Source of the DNA: Lophium mytilinum
Taxonomy: Eukaryota
Direction of reading: 5' to 3'
Length of the DNA stretch: 64,000 nt
Assembly (NCBI GenBank): GCA_010093605.1
Contig: MU004186.1
Location: 1,468,616-1,532,615, forward strand
Within the stretch, counting starts at the first letter, position 1. Each line of letters opens with the position of its first letter. Positions 10,020-23,649 of this stretch are shown here, in pieces. Below the pieces are notes generated by a model. It saw only the letters and a list, made by a program, of their open reading frames with translations. It was not told the origin of the DNA and did no database searches. The translations under genes and the position numbers were made by a program.

Positions 10020-11707
10020 GCTTGATAGGTGTTGTGTTGTGTGAGGGAGGTTCTTCGGGCGTCGCACGAAGGTGGAGGTTGACAGAGAGAGGACTGTGGT
10101 TGGAGTGGCTCTGTGTGGTGTTAGGAAGGTCTCACTGAGACAGCTGCGCCTTATATCGGGTTTCAGAGGTCCATTGAAGCGCTCTAGGGAATGGCAAATG
10201 GGCGCACCGAGATAGGGTGAATGGGCGAAGACGTGAGGTAGAGAAGCAGAGAGCACGCGCGCAGAGTCGTTGAGCTCCCCGCCGCAAGCCTTACGACAGC
10301 TATCCAGCTGCAGCACAGAGCAGGGGTCGAGGCAGGTATTATCTTACCACTATCTCATCTGCGTCTTTACTTTCTCCATGGCGGAAATGCACAATTGCGC
10401 ACCCGGAACGCGCCATTTCAGCAGCTCTAGCCCACCCAGGCGATCATTCACTGACAATGTCCGCCCTTCATTCCTCGCTAGCGCAGCCGTTGACGCCGTA
10501 TTTTGGCACGGTATTGTGGCAGAGGTACAGTACGATTATGACGTGACCTGGACGGGCAAGCTGGGCGGGAGCCCCCACTAAAACCCGTTGATAGCCCCTG
10601 CAAACCGCCGATCCTGCCGAAAATCGCTCCTCGGCCAAAACCTCCCTTCGTCAACACCAAGCTCGCTATCCCGACTCTCTCCGCCTTGTATCTAAGCATC
10701 CCGGGATCCTACATCTCATCTGAACCCACCAAGTACCGCAATTGGCAGTCTAAAGATGCACAAATCTGAGCTTACAGCCGCTTAGTCTCCGTAGCTAGAT
10801 CCCCGCCTACGAGTCACTGACCACGGCACTGTATCCTGTATTCAAGCTCCATCGATGACAACGATGATTCGATGCGTTTGTTTCTCTCCCTCTATACTTA
10901 CATGTCACACAAGACAGCTATAGCACATGTACAATTAATACTACTCGTCTTCGCACCACGTCGGAATCCACAGTAACAAAGCGTCCAAAGATGCTAGAAG
11001 TCATTTTTAGCAAGTTGGGATGCAGCTTATATACATATCTCTTCTCACAACTCATCTATTGCGCCAATAGCCGTTCTTGCGTTTGCTGTTCGTTCTTGAG
11101 CCAACCATATTGTTTTCAACCTCACTTTGTCTATGCTTTCCTCAATCGAGTAGCAATGTTGATTCAATGTTGCCACAAATAGCTTTGCATTTACGAATAT
11201 GTCTCAAAACTCATGTTTCTTGATGTCACTTGCGTTGAGATGTGCTAGTCACGGGATCCTTTGACGCCTTCTATCTCAAGACCCGCAATTTAAGCTATCA
11301 GCTATTGCATATATCCATGCCGGACTTTACTGCCAGCTTAGTGGGCTAGACTTACCACATAGTTTTTGATGGCGTAACCTGGTTAGCGGGCATTCTAGCA
11401 ATCGGGATACCCCGTCACCTCGTCCGTATCTCCTACCATCATCTTCCATCGCTTTATCCGCACAAATAACTGGACGATTAATACATCGGTATATTTTGAG
11501 AGAATGAAATGAGTCAAGCACAAAAAATCACTTCTCACAACACTTCCAAATCAATCAACCCCCCAGAAACTCCTTCCTGAATCACTCTAAAAGATCGGAA
11601 CGGAATCGTTACTTCTCTTCAAAAAAGGAACGCCGTTGATAAACCAGTCGTTGCAGCATACCATCCTGCCACCAAACCCTCCTCCTAGCACTTTCGAGTT
11701 CTTCCAA

Positions 11708-13199
11708 TCAAAATCTGAGAGGCTCAGGCGAGTACTTGCCCTTCGCGTACTCCACCGTCGTCGTTGTCGTCTGCACGATGTGTGTCTCACTCCCCCCATC
11801 GCTCTCCGCCGGGTCACCCCTCCGCTCATTAATCGTAATCGTCCCATCTAGCTCGACATCATTGTTCTTGTCCATACCAACATAAGTGGAGCGGCTGCGT
11901 TGGGCCCGCGTAGGCTTGCTGCCGTAGGTCTCGAGATCCGAATGCGCACTGCGATAGGCCTTGCGAGGATAAGCGTCGGACTGATGGCCGCTGGACTCGC
12001 CAATGAACTTGGGTGAGACGTGGCGGAAGAAGAGGCGCATCACGGGGAGGGAGCCACAGATGATGACGAGGTTGGCTTCCACTACAATCCAGATACAGGG
12101 GATGCTGAGGGCCCACGTTTGGTCCAGGTCGGTTAGAGAAGGCAGAATGACGACGAGGCGGATGATGGAGGTGACGCAAGTGCTACAGTGTGAGTAAGTA
12201 TCGCATTCGTTCTCGAACGACTCGCACACTCTTTCGACAAAAGATGACATGAATAGGGGGGCCACTTACAGCGAACCAACAGTAAACATTGCGATTAGCC
12301 CAATCTTCTGAATCCGCGGCATCTGCAGTTTGACGATCATGGGGATGGGGAGCGTCAAAAGCGTCAAATCCGTGGCAACGTTCACCACAGCCGTCATGAT
12401 GTAAATGATTGTCCTGTTGATGCAGGTTCCTTCAGTGATGAGGACATCCCAGTTCTTTGCGATCGGCCGGCATGGGAAGATCAATGCGAAAATGATGGCG
12501 AAGCTGTACCCTACCACGACGAACATGACGATGTAGACTGCGATCTTGAACCATCGGAGGGGTGAGAGCTTGTAGTAGAAAAGTAGCAAGGAGAATTTTG
12601 CGAGTCCAAGGCATGGCACGTAAAGAACAGAGGCCGACATGATCAGCTGCTGGAAGTTAGGAAAAGAGTCTGGCTTTGATGATCGAAAGGTGCGTACTAT
12701 GCTGAAGTAGTTGAAGTTTTCAATGGTCATCTCCCAGGCGTGGACGCCTACAGATTTGCTGAGCCACAGATCTGTATTCAGTCAGTCAAACCCATGCCCC
12801 CTGGGACCTCGTCGTTTTACTCACGGACAAGAATGGATTGCGTGGCAATTCCGAAGCACTGCAAAGTGAACTGGTAAGCACCTGTTCCACTGGGCTATGA
12901 AAGCGATTTTAGGGTAGTTACCCAAGCAATACAGAGACAAGCTAAAATAAAGTATTAGTTGTTGAACATACGGTCTATCGTGAACACTTAGACTCACCAT
13001 CTTCCAGCCCAAACATACGCGCCAGAACAGCCTTCGTATAGACTCGCATACTCAAAAAAGCAAAGCTGAGCACCATACCAACTCCAAAGACCCAGTAACC
13101 AGCAACATCCCCTTTCCTCTGCGGGTGATCGAAATTGACCACATAGCCTGTGGGAGCAGGTATCAAAGCCGGCGGCCAGGTCGAAGTTGCAGTCGCCAT
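11708..13199 (-). CDS. PTH11-like integral membrane protein (fungal rhodopsin-domain family)
   Basis: PAPTGYVVNFDHPQR, MRVYTK...FGLED, GVHAWE, AKFSLLLFY, IFPCRPIAKNWD, NVATD..LL.LPIPMI.KLQMP..QK, TSIIRL, WIVVEANLVIICGSLP. Several GT-AG introns. Confidence 0.92.
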
Positions 13200-15577: not shown

Positions 15578-17317
15578 ATGAGGCCAGGTTTCAGCACTGC
15601 TGCGCTGCTGAGTGCAGCTGCAGGCTCTCTTGCATCCGACCTTGCCAACGTAACGGCGATCAGGGATTGTTCCTTTTGCGTAACCCTCCCTTCGCTGTTC
15701 CAAAAAGCAGTTGAAACATTACTGACTGGCCCCAACAGTGTGGTGCACTTGCGGATGCGGGTCTCGCCAGCCGGATCACCTACCCTGGGTCGACCATCTA
15801 CGAGCAAAGAGTAGATTCGTACTGGTCTCTGACAGCCCAATTGACCCCGTGGTGCATCATTCAGCCACACAATGCCAAGGAGGTGTCCACCGCCGTGAAG
15901 GCTCTGGTCAAGGCCAACAAGAAAGAGGAATGCCTGTTCGCTGTCCGAAGTGGAGGCCATACGACGTGGCCTGGAGCAGCGAACATCGAGAATGGAATCA
16001 CCATTGATCTGGGGTTGATGAACTCGACGACTTACATCGCGAGCAACAATACCGCACAAGTCCTTCCTGGCTCGCGCTGGAAGGGTGTGTATCAGACCCT
16101 CGATGCTCTCGGGATTGCCGCAGCTGGTGGCCGTGCATCAACTGTCGGAGTTGCAGGGCTCGCCTTGGGTGGTGGCAACTCGTTCTATGCTGCTCGCAAA
16201 GGCTTAGTGTGTGACAACATTGCCCAATATGAAGTAGGACCTGTATCAGCTTGTATTAGCCATTGCTAATCACCTCTCACAGGTTGTTCTAGCCAGTGGC
16301 GAGATCATCTACGCCAACAACAAGACCAACACCGATCTTTTCCGCGCTCTCAAGGGTGGTACTGGTAACTTCGGTATCGTGACCCGCCTAGACTTGGACA
16401 CCTTCGAAGGTGAAGATCTCTGGGGTGGTGTCGTCACCTACCCCAACTCTACTACCGACGCCCAGATCCAAGCATTTGTGAACTTCGGCAACAACATTGA
16501 AAATGACCAGTACGGGTCTGCTATTGTCATTTGGCAATACACCACCCAGAACGCAGCAACTATCCTTATCAATGCATACGAGTACACAAAGCCTGTAGCA
16601 TGGCCTGCTGCCTTCGACGAGTTCAAGGCCATCCCCGACCGCACCTCCGACTCTATGCGCTTTACAAACATGACTGATCTTACCGTTGAGCTCGAACAAG
16701 CCGCTGGTTATCGGTAAGTCAATCACGTAATGATATCACTCCTTCACTAACATTCCCTCCCAGCGACACCTTTGTCACCCTCACCTTTGTCAACGACAAG
16801 CGCGTCGTTAAGAAAGCCGTCGACCTCCACAACACGGTTGTCGAAAAGGTCAAGGCCCACAAGGCCACCGGGAACTGGACTGTGCAAGACATGGTGCAGC
16901 CCATCCCAACCATCTTCACCAAGCACTCCGTTGAGAAGGGCGGGAACATGCTTGGATTGGACCGCTTTAGTGACAATCTCGTTCGTAAGTGCTTAGTTCT
17001 TTCTTCCCCTTTTCGGTTTCTCCGTTCTAAACGTATTTACAGTCTTCCAAACCTACCTTGCGTGGGAGGGCGCCGAGCAGGACGACTTCTTCCAGGGCTT
17101 GGGTGACTGGTACATCGCGCAGCTCAGCGCGTATGCCAAGAGCATTGGCAAGAGCAACCCCTACATCTACCTCGACTACGCATACGCGACACAGAAGCCG
17201 CTTGAGAACTACGGTGCTGTAAACATCGCGAAGCTGAAGGCTGCGTCGAAGAAGTATGATCCTACGGGTGTGTTCCAGAAGCTCGTGCCGGGTGGATTCA
17301 AGATCTCGAAGGTGTAG
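15578..17317 (+). CDS. Secreted FAD-linked oxidoreductase (FAD_binding_4 / berberine-bridge-like)
   Basis: Signal peptide MRPGFSTAALLSAAAGSLA. FAVRSGGH flavinylation motif, GVAGLALGGG, DLFRALKGGTGNFGIVT, YLDYA...KYDPTGVFQKLVPGGFKI. Four introns. TAG 17315-17317. Confidence 0.93.
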
Positions 17318-17908
17318 TGAGATGATGATTGCTTTGGGCGTTGGAGGTGAGCTGATGGAGGTTCAAGGTTTATGAGGGCGCTGAGAGGGTTGAGACGAAG
17401 GCTGGTCATGTCGGGGTTAGAGCGGTGCCTCAGCATACTGAGTTGTAGATGTTTGAGAAGACGAAAAGAAAAAGAAAAGGTACATGCTTGTATACTTTTA
17501 TCTACTAGTAGATCTTTCACGGTCCTTAACTTCTAATAAGTAATCTACCCTATTCGCTCGTTTCACTTTCTCAATCTTCTCCATGCAATTGCGCTTAGAA
17601 GACATGTGATAAGAGTCTTACAGGGCTCGGGTCTTCAAGCCTATCTAGCACATGGCTCTTGGTAAACTAGATGAATCTCTTCTTGGCTAGTACCTCATTT
17701 ATATCCGAAGCGCATGATGAATGGAACTTATAGGAAAGAGAAATGCACAGCCCCAACCAAATGAGAAAGGTAATTGAGAACCACACCGAACGACAGATCC
17801 TTCAAAGCTCCAAAAACCTCCACCAAACCTTCCCACAACCCCGCCTCAGATCTAGGAAATCCCACGCCATCTACGCCAGAACATATGAAACCCTTCCATC
17901 AATCTAGT

Positions 17909-18160
17909 CTAGCTAGCCACCGTCTCTTTCCCATCCTCTTCGCGCTCCCTTTTGCACTTATCAATCCCGCAGAATCCGTAAGCTTTCTCCGGTTCCTCCG
18001 TGCCGAGTCTTGGATTTAGATCTTTGCAGGTTGATTCAAGCCATCCCTGGCCCTTGCAAGGTTTACAATCCGTACCTTGGCTAATAACGATGGTTTTACA
18101 ACCGCAGAGGGTCCGTTCTCGGTAGAAGCCGACGCAGTCTTTTGCGCGTTTGATGGCCAT
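17909..18160 (-). CDS. Cys-rich microprotein, paralog 1 (83 aa)
   Basis: caccATG start. Pattern C-x9-C-x8-QG-x2-C-x2-C...C...C-x4-C matches the two neighbouring ORFs. Putative 5'UTR intron (GTACCT..TACTAAC..AAG). TATAAG at ~18478-18473. Confidence 0.65.
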   Translation of the reverse strand: MAIKRAKDCVGFYRERTLCGCKTIVISQGTDCKPCKGQGWLESTCKDLNPRLGTEEPEKAYGFCGIDKCKREREEDGKETVAS

Positions 18161-18631
18161 GGTGGTCGGTGGATGATGGGTGCAGAGGGTGGCTTTGAGG
18201 ATTGATTGTGAGGTGTGTCTGCGGCCTAATGCGGATTTCTTGGCTTTAAGAGTAGGGTTAGTATTTGTACTAACCCGAGGGTGATCTCGAGGTACCTGAG
18301 AAAATGCAAGTTGCGGTATACTTGCTCCTGGAAATTCTAAGAAGTTTTAGTGATGCGGATGATATCGGTACCTGGAATCAAGGGAAGCTTTCGCGTATGT
18401 TTATTGCACGCTGGAAGATCCGGTACGAAAGTGATGGAGCAGAAAGGAATCTGTTCGTGGAAGTTTGAGTCTCTTATACCCTTAGGTCGAAAGGTCTTGA
18501 CTCCTTATGACTCTATTGCGAAGCTTTGACGACTTAACACGTATCAGATATACTTTAGGAGTCAAGATCAGGAAAGACGAGTGTGAGCAAGTCTTCTGAC
18601 TAGGTGTTTGAGCCCTGATAAACTGGCTTCC

Positions 18632-18760
18632 GAAATCAACGCACGATCCTTTGTTTCAAGATGGCTCATCAATACACTCACGAAGCAGCAAAGAGTCAGA
18701 GGGCTCAGCATGGGCGGTATAAGAGGATTTTTTTTCTTCTAAACTCTCTTTCCCTCCAAT
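18632..18760 (+). promoter_or_regulatory. Promoter block of microprotein paralog 2, duplicated in inverted orientation at ~20335-20463
   Basis: 18632-18680 matches the reverse complement of 20415-20463 at 45/49 nt by hand count. Similarity continues through AAGAGTCAGAG..GCTC.GCATGG..GGTATA and TTTTCTTCTA.ACTCTCTTTTCC. Confidence 0.8.
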
Positions 18761-19091
18761 ATTACACAGTATCATCAATACGAGCTTCCAAATCCTATAT
18801 CGAATTCTCTCAACAGCTATATTAGCTTGAACAGCACTGCATCAGCCTACTCTCGAAAGCCTTCGACTTCTTGACTGTCCTTTAGTATTACTACGCCGTT
18901 TTTTGGATCTGGCTCATTGGAGAGGTGTGAAATTTATACTCAAAGGTAATACTTCGTGCATTGCAACTACATCAAAAGTAAACGGACGTTAACATCCACT
19001 AGTTCTCGAGATTCCACCACGGCTCGCAAACCTAGAACCCACACCTCATACCGTAACACCCTGACGTATTCCTCTCTCTACACCCGCCAAA

Positions 19092-19325
19092 ATGGCCGAG
19101 GACTGCTATACGTTGATAACATATTATGAAAGGTGTAACAAAGTCCGCTATGACATCAGGAAGGGGGGCAAATGCACCTTCTGCCCGACTCAGAAAAAGG
19201 GAGCTTGCGACATCATGAGCATTTACGATCGTGGAAGAGAAGAGAAGGAGACAAATCGCTCAGATAAGTGCAAGGACTCCAATTGCGCGGAATGCAAAGG
19301 GAAGGATGAGCCCTATCAGTTCTGA
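19092..19325 (+). CDS. Cys-rich microprotein, paralog 2 (77 aa)
   Basis: caaaATG start. C-x9-C-x8-KG-x2-C-x2-C...C...C-x4-C-x2-CKG. Putative 5'UTR intron starting GTAATA at ~18946. TATAAG at ~18718. Confidence 0.7.
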   Translation: MAEDCYTLITYYERCNKVRYDIRKGGKCTFCPTQKKGACDIMSIYDRGREEKETNRSDKCKDSNCAECKGKDEPYQF

Positions 19326-19877
19326 TATGGAACGCCCGAATGTCTTATTTGTTTGGGGGGGTTTATAGCTGTGCAGGACTGGTAGTTTCATGTGGTCGAT
19401 GGATCAGGGTTGTATTTTGGCGTGTTTCTGGAAATTTGGAGATTTCTTGCTTTCTGCTTTTTGCATGTTCTTATTTACTGAGCGTCCTTGTTTTTAGATC
19501 TTCTTGTATCTTAAACCTTCCTTGTTCTTTGAATCTTCTTGGTATTTAGATCTCTTTATTTCATCCGTGGTTTCAATTTTAAGCATGCGGAGTTGAACCG
19601 CGTAATACACCTTCGCTGTCAACGAATTGCATTGGCGCATCGCAAAACTAGTCTAACACTACTCCGCAAGCCGTGCATAAGCCATACCGAATTCAACACT
19701 TGATAGAAATCTAAATACACATCGAAAAAAAGAAGAATTGAAAGAAGAGCCCAAGAAACACATTAAACAAAACTCGATCCACTAGAAACCCAAACCCGCA
19801 AACACTCCACATCTTTGAATACTTAACTCCACCACACAGTAGAGTTTCTGAAGCATTGCTGTCGCATTCTCATGCGC

Positions 19878-20120
19878 CTATGTCTTCTTAACCCCTTTGC
19901 AAACTGGGCAACCTGAATGGCCGCAGTACCCCTTGATTTTCCTCACATACCCCTCCGATCTCCCCGTTCTCTCACAACTCCAGGAATCGCAGTCTACAAT
20001 TTGTCCATTAAAGGTAGGCTCCTTACAATAAGAGCAGTCGTCTCCCTTCACGATGACCATCAGGTCGTGGAAACACTTGTCATATGATGACTTGTATGCG
20101 AAGTAGTTCGGTTGGCCCAT
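19878..20120 (-). CDS. Cys-rich microprotein, paralog 3 (80 aa)
   Basis: ATG 20120, MGQPNYFAYKSSYDKC-x8-KG-x2-C-x2-C...C...C-x4-C-x2-CKG. Upstream region is homologous to that of paralog 2. Confidence 0.7.
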   Translation of the reverse strand: MGQPNYFAYKSSYDKCFHDLMVIVKGDDCSYCKEPTFNGQIVDCDSWSCERTGRSEGYVRKIKGYCGHSGCPVCKGVKKT

Positions 20121-20334
20121 TTCAACGGTGTAGATGAGTAGGTCGGCTTGAGATTGGCTTATGCGGCGTGGATGCCAACTTTCCAAGCCGTGGTGAGATC
20201 TTTAGGGGATGTTAATGCCCTTTTAGTTCTTATGCGGTTGCAAGACACGAGATATTACCTTCGAGTATGAGATTTACACTTCTCTACCGAACTGGGTTCA
20301 GGGAAATGGTTGGGTAATATGTGTGTGATGGTGT

Positions 20335-20463
20335 AGGAAAAGAGAGTCTAGAAGAAAACTCAAACCTTCATATACCATCCATGCCGAGCACTCTGACTCT
20401 TCGCCGCCTCCTCATGAGTCTATTGATGAGCCATCATGAAACAAAGCATCGTGCGTTGGTTTC
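20335..20463 (-). promoter_or_regulatory. Promoter block of microprotein paralog 3 (inverted copy of 18632-18760)
   Basis: See partner feature. Contains GAGTCA (20399-20394) about 17 nt upstream of a TATA-like GGTATATGAA. Confidence 0.8.
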
Positions 20464-21063
20464 AGGGGCGAGCATTGAGCAACTTGAGGCTTGGACTGTG
20501 ACTGGGCTGTTGAAATCAGACTACCCTTTGACTAAAAAGCTGGCGGCCAGCGGGGCCACCCCTCACACTGGTGTCAAGCGAGCAAATCTAAAGCGCGCGC
20601 AGTGTGATTCACGTGCTGCGGATATCGTTGACTTGATTCGTAGCGTCTTGCTCAACGATATTTACACTCGGTTGGCACTGTTTGGGGTCCCCCCGTGGTC
20701 TTTCAAAATCATAGACGTGACGTCAATATCGAGACCGTACGAATCTGGCTACCTATTTCCCGCCGGGCAACTTGACTGCTGAGGTCCCCCTGACAGTGTC
20801 ATCGAGAGAGCAAGAGCGGCGCACGAACAGTGAGATATCCGAGCGCGCAACCACATGACCACACACTTCGCAAGATTAGCCTCACCGAGAACACGAACCC
20901 CTTTGCGGCACGAACATGGCACATGTAGTCACAAAAGTAACGCCCTGTCGTTTCAGAACTACAACTATACGTCAGCATTAAGCCTGACACTCATATACGA
21001 GTCTTGACTCCATCATACGAAGCCGACTCTATATTCAACACAACCAACTACGCACAGGGCACC

Positions 21064-23649
21064 TCAGCGTCGCCATTCATCGTACTTATCGCGATGTTCC
21101 CTCCGCCTCGCTTCTTCCCACTCAGCCATCTCCGCATCTTGGCGCTCTTGTGCTTGGATTTCCCCCCAGCTGATACGAGGCGGACGGCCTCGAGGGGGTG
21201 GAGGTGGTGGACCTGGCGGAGGAGGCGGAGCTCGGCCTTTTCCGTAAGGACGCGAAGCAGGATATGGAGATGGCTTTCGCGAGTCCGTGTTCCTGTATGC
21301 TGGAGGAGCTGGAGGCGGTGGAGGCGGTGGGCCTGATGGAGGAGGAGGCGGAGCTCGACTTCTTCTGTAAGGCTGCGAAGAAGGATATTGCGACAGCTTT
21401 TCCGAGGCTACCTTCTTTTGCGGTGGATACTCTGGGGGAGAAAGTTGGTGCTTCTCTGCCTGCTGCGTGGGTGGCGGTCGATTCCTAGAGTAGCAGTGCT
21501 GAAGATGGCGTTCTAGCGCATTTTCGCTCCACAGCTCCTGTCCACACTTTTGGCAGCAGATGGATGGCTTTGGGGCGGGATGAGCGGTCTGGCGCGTACT
21601 GTCTTCTAACCGGTTGTCGTGCAGCGCTGAAGTGGTGTCAAGCCCGAACTGAGGTTTAGCCGGTGGAGTATAGACTACTCGCGTGAGCGATTGTGTATTC
21701 AGAGACGGGAGTTTGGTTTGCTCACGCTTCACTGGTCTCTTCTCCGCTTGTTCGCGTTTTGCTTGTTTCTTCCGGGCCAGCTGTAGTTCAGCTGCTTCCT
21801 TTTGGGCTTGCTGTCGCTCGGCCTCTTTCTCCTGAGCTTGCTGTCGCTCAGCCTCTTTCCTCAGGGCTTGCTGCCGTTCTGCCTCTTCTTTCTGAGCTTG
21901 CTGCTTGCTCGCTAAATCCTTTAAGGCTTGCTGTCGTTCAGCTTCTTCCTTTTGAGATTTCTCTTTCGCCGCCTGCTCTCTCGCTGCCTCGCGGACCTTC
22001 TCCGCTTCCATCTCAGCCGTCTTCTCCGCGTCTTCCTTTTCGAGCTTGGCCAAACGAGCCAAACGCTCCTCCTCTAATTTCGCCGCAAGTGCAACCTTTG
22101 GGTTCCGCGCTTGCTTTTTCGCCCAATACTCTTCATTCTCCTTTTTCTCCAGGACCTTCCTCGCCTTGACTTTTTCTTCCCATTCCCTAGCCGCTGGCGT
22201 TCGTTCGCTTGGTGAAGACGCAGCAATGGGAGTCGCAAAGGGGTCATATATGGACTCAGCCGCCTTGAATCGGAGCAGTTGTGCAACACTATCAGAGATC
22301 CCGGTGAGTTTTCTCATGGCTTTGTTTCCCCAGGGAGGTCTCGCTAGCCTCGTCGTCGGCTTGGTTAGTAGCGAGCACGAGGTAAGGATTTCGGAGCCTT
22401 CCACCACCTCGCCCTCCTCCAACTCCGATGACTCCTCCCTCCCGGACTCCTCCAAGTGCTCCGCCTCTCTGAGAGCCCATATCGGCTTCGGCGCGTGCCT
22501 TGCGTTCTTCTTTCTTGGAGCGTCCTGTCGCAGTTCGGTGATCTGCTGCTGCTCCAGGAGGTAAGCTTCGATTCTCGTTGTATCGTTGGGCAAGGGTGAA
22601 GCCGAAGGGCTGTTGGGAATCTCCGCCAGATCTTGGCTGCTGGATTCCAGAGCGAGAATTGGTGAACTGCTGTTGTTCTTAGAGATCGAATTAGTTGGTT
22701 TCGGTTGCTCGTCTTCGCCGTCGAAGCTCCACACATCGAAAATACACTTACTCACACCGCGATCGTCGGGCTCGCGCTTTATACCCTGGTGCTCTGAGCC
22801 TGATCTGTAGGCTGAGTCTGATGAGACGGAGCGGGGTTGTGTGCCATTGAAACCAGGATTAGAATTGGAGGAAGGGGAGCTGCCAAGCGATTGATCCAAA
22901 GAGGCGATTGTCATACGTTGAGTACCGGGGGCTGGCATGTGCGCAACATAGTTCTCCGACGTAAGCTCTATTGTGGGCTGCGAGCGCGACTCAGATTGTG
23001 TATCTTGGTGGAAGTTTGGCACTGAAGGGCGAACACTCCCGCGTCTAAGCGTAGAGCGTCGAGCTGGGGACGAGCTCCCTCTAGTCTGTAAAGACCGAGG
23101 CGTGAGCGCGTGAGGGATAGAGACACCTGACTTTGAGACCGATTGAGCGTCAGGAGACTTGGCGTTGGTCTGTCCATTCAATTGGCGTTGCAGCTGCTCG
23201 TTCTCTAGACGCGCCTTGTCGAGCTCCTGCTGTAGATACGAGTTTCGCTGCTTCAGCTCGTGGATCAAGCCCTCCGCTGAGATCCGCTGGGCAATCTCCT
23301 GGTCTAGCTCAGATTGGAGAGATAAAGCTCGAGCTTGAAATTCTTTTCGTCGAGTGCGCTCTTCGTAGGCGACGCTATAGCAGGCGTTCATTCCGCGCCG
23401 AATATCCTCTACGCCATTGGCAAGGCGGCCCACAAGAGGAAGGTCATCCTCTGTGCCAGTAAAGCACCATTGCGCCTCCATATGTTGGTCTATTGACGGT
23501 GTAGTGTCGTGCGGTGACATGGACATTGTCGATCCAGAAGGAGCAGTTACCGCGGACGCAATGAGTGGCGACTGCGGCAAAGTCGCGGAGGGCTTATCAG
23601 GAGGTTCAGCATCACTACCCGGGCTCGTGCCCGCCATGGGTGTATCCAT
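21064..23649 (-). CDS. Large low-complexity protein: coiled coils, KEEAERQQA repeats, C2HC/C2H2-type zinc finger, poly-Pro tail
   Basis: 861-aa uninterrupted ORF with CQKCGQELWSENALERHLQHC, repeated (K)EAERQQA units, and a duplicated S.YP.S.PY...RAPPPPP.GPPPPPP unit. Confidence 0.75.
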   Translation of the reverse strand: MDTPMAGTSPGSDAEPPDKPSATLPQSPLIASAVTAPSGSTMSMSPHDTTPSIDQHMEAQWCFTGTEDDLPLVGRLANGVEDIRRGMNACYSVAYEERTRRKEFQARALSLQSELDQEIAQRISAEGLIHELKQRNSYLQQELDKARLENEQLQRQLNGQTNAKSPDAQSVSKSGVSIPHALTPRSLQTRGSSSPARRSTLRRGSVRPSVPNFHQDTQSESRSQPTIELTSENYVAHMPAPGTQRMTIASLDQSLGSSPSSNSNPGFNGTQPRSVSSDSAYRSGSEHQGIKREPDDRGVSKCIFDVWSFDGEDEQPKPTNSISKNNSSSPILALESSSQDLAEIPNSPSASPLPNDTTRIEAYLLEQQQITELRQDAPRKKNARHAPKPIWALREAEHLEESGREESSELEEGEVVEGSEILTSCSLLTKPTTRLARPPWGNKAMRKLTGISDSVAQLLRFKAAESIYDPFATPIAASSPSERTPAAREWEEKVKARKVLEKKENEEYWAKKQARNPKVALAAKLEEERLARLAKLEKEDAEKTAEMEAEKVREAAREQAAKEKSQKEEAERQQALKDLASKQQAQKEEAERQQALRKEAERQQAQEKEAERQQAQKEAAELQLARKKQAKREQAEKRPVKREQTKLPSLNTQSLTRVVYTPPAKPQFGLDTTSALHDNRLEDSTRQTAHPAPKPSICCQKCGQELWSENALERHLQHCYSRNRPPPTQQAEKHQLSPPEYPPQKKVASEKLSQYPSSQPYRRSRAPPPPPSGPPPPPPPAPPAYRNTDSRKPSPYPASRPYGKGRAPPPPPGPPPPPPRGRPPRISWGEIQAQERQDAEMAEWEEARRREHRDKYDEWRR

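Follow-up and report, generated by a model that had tools for sequence, protein, structure and literature searches.

Introduction

Cysteine knuckle pairs of the type CxxC...CxxCKG are typical metal ligands, and they pair up in zinc ribbons, in rubredoxins and in the Cys-rich domain of DnaJ, which has four repeated CxxCxGxG motifs. Other small Cys-rich proteins have other patterns: metallothioneins have a very high Cys content in C-x-C and C-C clusters, and twin Cx9C (CHCH) proteins have two conserved Cx9C motifs. Here we describe a cluster of three short open reading frames (ORF1, ORF2 and ORF3) in a 64-kb window of Lophium mytilinum DNA (contig MU004186.1; the window is the whole stretch of 64,000 nt that was analysed), the source being a filamentous ascomycete. 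In all likelihood the three ORFs are real, paralogous coding genes, and we lean slightly towards a combined reading in which these genes are co-regulated and encode leaderless zinc-fold proteins. All three ORFs start with ATG, and each is a single coding exon for a protein of 77-83 residues, behind a leader with one short candidate intron:

17909..18160, minus strand: ORF1 coding sequence (CDS), 83 amino acids (aa) plus stop; Cys at residues 9, 19, 21, 32, 35, 45, 64 and 69
19092..19325, plus strand: ORF2 CDS, 77 aa plus stop; Cys at residues 5, 15, 28, 31, 39, 60, 65 and 68
19878..20120, minus strand: ORF3 CDS, 80 aa plus stop; Cys at residues 16, 29, 32, 44, 49, 66, 71 and 74

Judged by its cysteines, the trio is loosely zinc-ribbon-like. 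As in the zinc ribbon/rubredoxin knuckle (Zn_Ribbon_1, DZR), the proteins are small and without His ligands, and ORF2 and ORF3 have distant Cys pairs, CxxC...CxxC, with a Gly after the second (CxxCKG). The ligand pattern would then consist of C28, C31, C65 and C68 in ORF2 and of C29, C32, C71 and C74 in ORF3, while ORF1 has CxxC...Cx4C. The trio is unlike zinc ribbons in its four further conserved or relocated Cys, in the Cx4C that stands in place of the second CxxC in ORF1 and in the absence of a zinc-ribbon Pfam match at E ≤ 10, and its structure models, with a predicted local distance difference test score (pLDDT) < 50, do not confirm the fold. Similarly, the Cys-rich domain of DnaJ (PF00684) and Anti-TRAP (PF15777) resemble the trio in the perfect CxxCxGxG of ORF1 (CKPCKGQG) and in the C-terminal CxxCKG knuckles of ORF2 (CAECKG) and ORF3 (CPVCKG), but each trio protein has one such knuckle, compared to four, and none has a J-domain. 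We reject membership of both families, as PF00684 is not among the matches at E ≤ 10 and Anti-TRAP, the top Pfam row for ORF3, reaches only E = 1.5 (9.4 bits against a cut-off of 32).

We regard the trio as a family that is new but of a generally familiar kind, whose nearest analogue appears to be the archaeal one-domain zinc-finger micro-proteins of Haloferax volcanii, linked to stress adaptation in the title of the paper that describes them (PMC6562870). Described as very small, leaderless, built on a Cys knuckle and often unannotated, they are functional analogues in kind of ours; they differ in being archaeal, in having a single zinc-finger domain and in showing no sequence relation to the trio, which is eukaryotic, with eight Cys per protein and a candidate spliced leader.

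The three ORFs share a cysteine scaffold

A first-pass annotation of this DNA had described a common spacing, C-x8-[KQ]G-x2-C-x2-C followed by x7-11-C-x18-21-C-x4-C, with an added x2-CKG in two of the ORFs and an upstream DC-x9-C in two, and every part of this description held. In the six-frame translation of the window, C-x8-[KQ]G-x2-C-x2-C is found three times, only in ORF1-3, compared to a mean of 0.02 (maximum 1) in 50 base shuffles. The longer spacing C-x2-C-x7-11-C-x18-21-C-x4-C has four matches (shuffle mean 0.04), namely ORF1-3 and one chance match that is interrupted by a stop (11078-11188). C-x4-C-x2-CKG is found twice, only in ORF2 and ORF3, and never in shuffles, and DC-x9-C is read from the sequences of ORF1 and ORF2. 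All three proteins have exactly eight Cys, although in each of them two positions differ: ORF3 has Tyr at the position of the others' first Cys and an extra C49, and ORF1 is without the last Cys and has an extra C21.

With eight Cys in 77-83 aa, Cys accounts for ∼10% of each protein. The proteins are His-poor, hydrophilic and mildly basic, with a grand average of hydropathy (GRAVY) of -0.6 to -1.2 and a pI of 8.1-8.4. We judged the question of a signal peptide, which the first pass had considered absent, by Kyte-Doolittle means over 9 residues in the first 35 aa. The highest such mean is 0.6-1.9 and the N-termini are charged; a hydrophobic N-terminal segment is indeed lacking in all three proteins.

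Amino acid identity between pairs is 25-27%, and we evaluated pairwise Smith-Waterman scores against 2000 composition-preserving shuffles. The score of ORF2 and ORF3 (z 6.1) was reached by 1 of the 2000 shuffles, and that of ORF1 and ORF3 (z 3.2) by 14. ORF1 is further tied to the trio in that it lies next to the others and shares their motif spacing, promoter module and gene structure. On these comparisons we consider the three ORFs to be homologous, that is, paralogues. A profile hidden Markov model (HMM) of the three peptides, a check proposed with the first annotation, found only ORF1-3 among the window's 1630 six-frame fragments (next best E = 1), and hence no fourth copy in the window.

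Promoters, leaders and start sites

Upstream of each ORF, two GAGTCA elements of the TGACTC type and a TATA-like box (GGTATAAGA for ORF1 and ORF2, GGTATATGA for ORF3) make up the promoter, which is followed by a leader with one candidate intron:

18472..18518, minus strand: ORF1 promoter module, CAATAGAGTCAT, a second GAGTCA, then the TATA-like GGTATAAGA
18623..18724, plus strand: ORF2 promoter block, like that of ORF3 (80-85% in the inverted-repeat arms)
18693-18724, plus strand: end of the ORF2 promoter, GAGTCA-N17-GGTATAAGA
20368..20472, minus strand: ORF3 promoter block, an inverted copy of that of ORF2, CAATAGACTCAT, then GAGTCA-N17-GGTATATGA (20399-20368)
18244..18295, minus strand: ORF1 candidate leader intron, 52 nt, GTACCT ... 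TACTAAC ... AG, with a perfect TACTAAC; read from the sequence
18946..19002, plus strand: ORF2 candidate leader intron, 57 nt, GTAATA ... CTAG; read from the sequence
20200..20258, minus strand: ORF3 candidate leader intron, 59 nt, GTAATA ... CTAAAG

The pattern GAGTCA-N8-30-GGTATAWGA has three matches on both strands of the 64 kb, each located 250-370 nt upstream of one ORF start and in the right orientation, and none in 100 shuffles; since the pattern was drawn from these same three flanks, the only informative points are that the diverged ORF1 has it too and that the rest of the window does not. The TATA-like boxes of the first-pass annotation are thus recovered at all three genes.

The leaders are free of ATG. 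The distances from TATA box to ATG for ORF1, ORF2 and ORF3 (311 + 367 + 247 = 925 nt) contain no ATG, where ∼10-15 would be expected; 2000 composition-preserving shuffles contained 10.3 on average and never fewer than 1, and among 5000 triplets of segments drawn at random from the window not one is as ATG-poor. The 300-nt 3′ flanks of ORF1, ORF2 and ORF3 contain 6, 6 and 11 ATG, respectively. Such a distribution is the signature of leaders in which upstream starts are avoided and a scanning ribosome can arrive at the ATG of the ORF.

The candidate introns (52-59 nt), which agree with the putative 5′ UTR introns of the first annotation, end 79-89 nt before the ATG in all three genes. Exon 2 would begin at 18243 in ORF1 (83 nt ahead of the ATG) and at 20199 in ORF3 (79 nt ahead); an alternative donor in ORF1, GTATAC at 18321, would give a 78-nt intron. 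In exon 2 of ORF2, an in-frame stop is followed by a 9-codon open stretch and then the ATG, and therefore an N-terminal extension or a hidden upstream coding exon (for a signal peptide, for instance) is excluded. The start contexts (ccaccATGG, caaaATGG and tgaaATGG) all have a purine at -3 and G at +4, and can justly be called good, as they had been. The GC content at third codon positions (GC3) is 0.55-0.62 in the trio and 0.55-0.67 in neighbouring genes. Exon 1 of the ORF2 leader has, at 18770-18890 on the plus strand, an insertion of ∼95-120 nt relative to ORF3 (118 gapped columns), which also contains no ATG.

Transcription and annotation status

One sequencing run (X3, labelled 'RNA?') contains spliced RNA, since its contig 7 crosses the intron of the neighbouring oxidase gene in spliced form, joining 16984 to 17043. 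A second contig of this run covers part of ORF3:

20035..20202: X3 contig 8, 168 nt, 0 differences, covering the first 86 coding bases of ORF3 and the exon-2 leader

This is modest evidence that ORF3 is transcribed, at least partially. The contig stops where spliced and unspliced forms would part, at the acceptor AG (20201-20200), and its last three letters fit either form; its end is thus a weak hint of the ORF3 splice acceptor. X3 covers neither ORF1, ORF2 nor most of the interval, about whose expression it says nothing. Two other runs, X1 and X2, probably derive from the source DNA itself and contribute no independent evidence. Based on the promoter module common to all three, on leaders that lack ATG and have candidate introns, and on this one RNA contig, the three ORFs are very probably real, translated genes.

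The exact sequences of ORF1-3 were not found among ∼15 billion proteins, nor did an HMMER profile search retrieve them. The 714-aa DUF726 protein encoded in the same window is present in the public protein collection, and from the presence of this neighbour and the absence of the trio we conclude that the genome annotation omitted the trio, as had been suspected of ORFs so small. If confirmed, the trio would be a concrete case of functional-looking microprotein genes overlooked by standard fungal annotation, and the ATG-free leader, the shared promoter module and the spliced leader would be signatures of translation, obtainable from DNA only, with which further small genes that annotation has missed might be located.

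Searches for relatives

Pfam searches at E ≤ 10 returned sub-threshold rows only (E 0.05-5), all under the curated cut-offs: Amastin (0.052), Anti-TRAP (1.5), Zn_Tnp_IS91 (1.5), Metallothio_Euk (2.2) and DUF4379 (5.3). A word-indexed search of 5.8 billion clusters gave no matches for the trio, and the best result of a profile search against PDB sequences was a WD40 protein at E = 0.057. In metagenome contigs, none of 213 pattern matches was confirmed by tblastn, and the 26-nt promoter pattern had no match. The HMMER profile search of 1.84 billion representatives gave three matches, to proteins of 825-2841 aa, each in 3-7 stretches. We consider these spurious, as they are long proteins matched in multiple stretches and two have bacterial-type domains (NlpC/P60 and dockerin in one, bacterial Ig and cadherin-like repeats in another, and faint Pfam matches only in the third). 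No described family like the trio was found in the portions of the literature covered by our search.

Thus the family, which had not been recognized at first pass, remained without a match across Pfam, PDB, protein and metagenome searches, and the Pfam assignment that would have spoken against its novelty was not found. By its sequences, the trio appears to be an undescribed orphan protein family. Its value is limited for now, as a single genome has supplied all three members and fungi commonly have orphan small genes; if confirmed, it would be a new protein family without a detectable relative among the 1.84 billion representatives.

Proposed function

We propose that the central CxxC and the C-terminal Cx4C(xxC)KG knuckle form one Cys4 zinc site in the style of a zinc ribbon, and that the remaining four Cys form a second; with two four-Cys sites, a constant number of eight Cys at shifting positions would be accounted for. 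Zinc binding is made plausible by the CxxC and CxxCKG knuckles, each with Lys-Gly or Gly after it, by the hydrophilic, leaderless character of the proteins and by the eight Cys of every member. Variable residues located between the Cys would be a binding surface that carries specificity. The proteins would remain intracellular, most likely in a reducing compartment given that they are hydrophilic and mildly basic with no hydrophobic N-terminus. The GAGTCA/TGACTC-type elements, which we take from their consensus to resemble Gcn4/CpcA-like or AP-1-like bZIP sites, may allow joint induction of the three genes under stress or starvation. That the proteins bind zinc has, in our estimation, an even chance of being correct.

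Several results weigh against this combined reading. The last Cys of the C-terminal knuckle is absent from ORF1, and the Smith-Waterman score of ORF1 and ORF2 (z 0.5, reached by 570 of the 2000 shuffles) is not significant alone; because of this, and because ORF1 and ORF3 are less similar than ORF2 and ORF3, we consider ORF1 a distant member. The promoter pattern, as noted, was derived from the flanks in which it was then counted, and the RNA support is a single short low-depth contig, of unknown strand, for ORF3 only. No zinc-ribbon or DnaJ-type Pfam model is reported for the trio even at E ≤ 10. In the ESM Atlas, the recognition scores (1894 and 1579) fall under the mark of 2300, the best scores (0.85 and 0.80) are in the chance range, and the nearest named clusters are assorted zinc-ribbon families at 0.75-0.80, again the range of chance. 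Finally, AlphaFold2 models made with the three-sequence alignment have a mean pLDDT of 37.4 (ORF3) and 40.2 (ORF2) and agree, at low confidence, on an N-terminal β-hairpin only. The structure prediction suggested at first pass gave unusable models: with both below pLDDT 50, they are no evidence for a fold.

Disulfide-bonded alternatives

The alternative that survives best, and that we still consider rather unlikely, is that the Cys form disulfides, either in Mia40-type substrates of the intermembrane space or in antimicrobial or effector-like peptides that leave the cell unconventionally. The Cys number stays at an even eight despite the moved positions, as four disulfides would need as well, Cx9C spacings do occur, two in ORF1 (C9-C19 and C35-C45) and one in ORF2, and the mildly basic pI of 8.1-8.4 would be in keeping. 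However, the twin Cx9C is not conserved; the second spacing is x7 in ORF2 and x11 in ORF3, in which Tyr replaces the first Cys. With two Cx9C motifs in ORF1, one in ORF2 and none in ORF3, and with no CHCH row from Pfam, we do not assign the trio to the twin Cx9C proteins. Moreover, the N-terminal segment is modelled (at low confidence) as a β-hairpin and not as a helix, and CxxC...CxxCKG pairs are what is typically seen in metal ligands.

The trio resembles fungal secreted Cys-rich proteins (effectors, hydrophobins, CFEM and AFP/PAF-type proteins) in that its members are small, have eight Cys in a conserved framework and are tandem paralogues of low identity, but it differs from them in having neither a signal peptide or hydrophobic segment at the N-terminus nor CC pairs. 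At E ≤ 10, Pfam gave no match to hydrophobins, to CFEM or CHCH families or to defensin-like ones. We reject membership of this group based on the Kyte-Doolittle maximum of 0.6-1.9, the charged N-termini, and the stop upstream of ORF2, which leaves no room for a hidden coding exon.

Divergence of 5′ flanks and coding exons

ORF1 and ORF2 are arranged head-to-head and ORF2 and ORF3 tail-to-tail, and the 5′ regions of the latter pair make up an inverted repeat with arms that are 74-85% identical. Identity between ORF2 and ORF3 varies along the gene:

Whole upstream alignment: 260 of 369 columns, 70%
Upstream of the TATA box: 72%
Exon 1: 71%
Candidate leader intron: 43 of 56 columns, 77%
Exon-2 leader: 62%
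Codon-aligned CDS: 47%; third positions 42%

Local DNA alignment of the two genes is no better than that of shuffles in the CDS (score 18 compared to a shuffle mean of 17.5) or the 3′ flank (23 compared to 20.4), and the third positions of differing codons are ∼31% identical, as in random sequence. By the Nei-Gojobori method (NG86), dN is 0.89 and dS 1.13, near saturation at all codon positions; these values are unreliable, NG86 being the only method with figures for all pairs (with the dS of ORF1 and ORF2 undefined, -1), while LWL85 gave one pair and YN00 none. Because the coding DNA is near saturation, an excess of dN over dS cannot be shown. The flank of ORF1 is 43-49% identical to the others, about the level of chance, and only its promoter module is kept, which argues that the module itself is under selection.

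Two histories fit these data. The coding exons of ORF2 and ORF3 may be old and their 5′ part later homogenized by gene conversion; the fall in identity toward the ATG resembles the end of a conversion tract. Alternatively, the duplication may be younger and the exons may have changed unusually fast. Among identical residues, the codon is also identical in 13 of 19 cases between ORF2 and ORF3 (7 of 18 and 9 of 18 in the pairs with ORF1), a hint that ORF2 and ORF3 separated more recently than their protein divergence would indicate. With a 5′ flank that is better conserved than the coding exon, the pair is a case in which gene conversion restricted to the promoter, or else accelerated evolution of the protein, can be tested.

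Kept regulatory DNA next to a diverging coding exon is the pattern of toxin and recognition gene families, and the trio might likewise be a constant scaffold with a hypervariable surface, its regulatory and leader DNA retained while diversifying selection drove the coding exons apart. This would, if true, point to intracellular conflict or recognition (mycoviruses, selfish elements or allorecognition). We regard it as unlikely. The earlier claim that the family is rapidly diversifying was not sustained, as dN/dS is saturated and the conserved 5′ flank fits a gene-conversion tract equally well, and the role it had suggested in conflict, defence or non-self recognition found no support.

We also considered whether the conserved 5′ block is itself coding, and rejected each candidate. 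The antisense ORFs 18711-18568 and 20381-20782 show no more protein similarity than their ∼80% DNA identity predicts, and in the ORF3 copy the sense ORF 18661-18825 meets a stop after 6 codons. For the 133-aa ATG ORF at 20381-20782 (plus strand), searches gave neither a Pfam family nor a homologue in the size range of 73-233 aa, and it is probably not a gene; it is divergent from ORF3, and its first 30 codons overlap the ORF3 promoter block. A search of 16500-21500 against Rfam at E ≤ 1 gave no matches, and thus no known RNA explains the conserved block. Beside the ORF3 promoter block, 20554-20586 (33 nt) and 20789-20818 (30 nt) are found again, each time with 3-4 differences, elsewhere in the contigs of the source-genome runs X1 and X2, and the former also in a high-depth X3 contig; this is a small dispersed repeat.

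Less likely alternatives: metallothionein-like proteins and relics

Instead of the binding of a macromolecular partner, the proteins might serve metal buffering or redox sensing in the manner of metallothioneins, being induced to sequester Zn, Cu or Cd or to sense oxidants, an explanation we hold to be quite improbable. It would suit small, leaderless proteins that are rich in Cys and poor in His, in three tandem copies with a common promoter module as in amplified metallothionein loci, and its weakest hint is that the sole Pfam row of ORF1 is Metallothio_Euk (E = 2.2). That score is far under the cut-off, though, at 8.8 bits compared to 22. In addition, the Cys content is merely ∼10%, there are no C-C clusters and the sole C-x-C is C19-G-C21 of ORF1, charged Cys-free stretches of 18-21 residues lie between two of the conserved Cys, and no recognizable metal-response element could be established. 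We reject membership of the metallothioneins on the Cys content, the restriction of C-x-C to ORF1 and the Metallothio_Euk score.

That the ORFs are untranslated, being non-coding transcripts or decaying relics of duplication with the Cys pattern as a remnant, is very unlikely: the failure of the cluster, representative and metagenome searches to find homologues, the missing annotation, the dN/dS of ORF2 and ORF3 near 0.8 by NG86 and the low-confidence structure models would agree with it, but all three first-ATG ORFs are intact over 77-83 codons (in random sequence of like composition, a chance of ∼0.02 each by our estimate), the Cys scaffold is kept without detectable similarity of the coding DNA (the local score of 18 against 17.5 given above), the 925 nt of leader have no ATG, and the Kozak contexts are good and GC3 is like that of coding genes.

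Neighbouring genes

The trio occupies a gap of 3.5 kb that has an ordinary gene on either side. The left one is on the plus strand, presumably for a FAD/BBE-type oxidase judging by motifs recognized in its translations, and its last ORF ends at 17317:

16985-17042, plus strand: intron of the left neighbour, 58 nt, canonical GTAAGT...TTACAG; spliced in X3 contig 7, with 16984 joined to 17043

The X3 contig with this splice extends to 17520, ∼200 nt beyond the stop at 17317, and this extension is probably 3′ UTR.

On the right is an 861-aa coiled-coil, proline-rich ORF (23649-21064, minus strand), for which no Pfam family was found at E ≤ 0.001. It contains a 30-nt period, repeated seven times, that encodes a charged 10-residue repeat of the type EAERQQAQKE, two G-rich repeat blocks that encode long proline runs, and a C2H2-like stretch, CCQKCG...HLQHC. 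Its repeat regions are:

21737-21974, within the ORF on the minus strand: repeat region
21173-21357, within the ORF on the minus strand: repeat region

Pfam searches of the window's long ORFs identified Fung_rhodopsin, a Zn2Cys6 cluster domain, DUF3425, DUF726 and PrpF. A named protein from Mytilinidion resinicola, a Dothideomycete, is identical to the 714-aa DUF726 protein at 681 of 714 positions (95%). The fungal rhodopsin-domain (PF20684) gene, 11708-12781 on the minus strand, is split across two adjacent ORFs that correspond to profile positions 41-182 and 184-236, with an intron or frame change at ∼12266.

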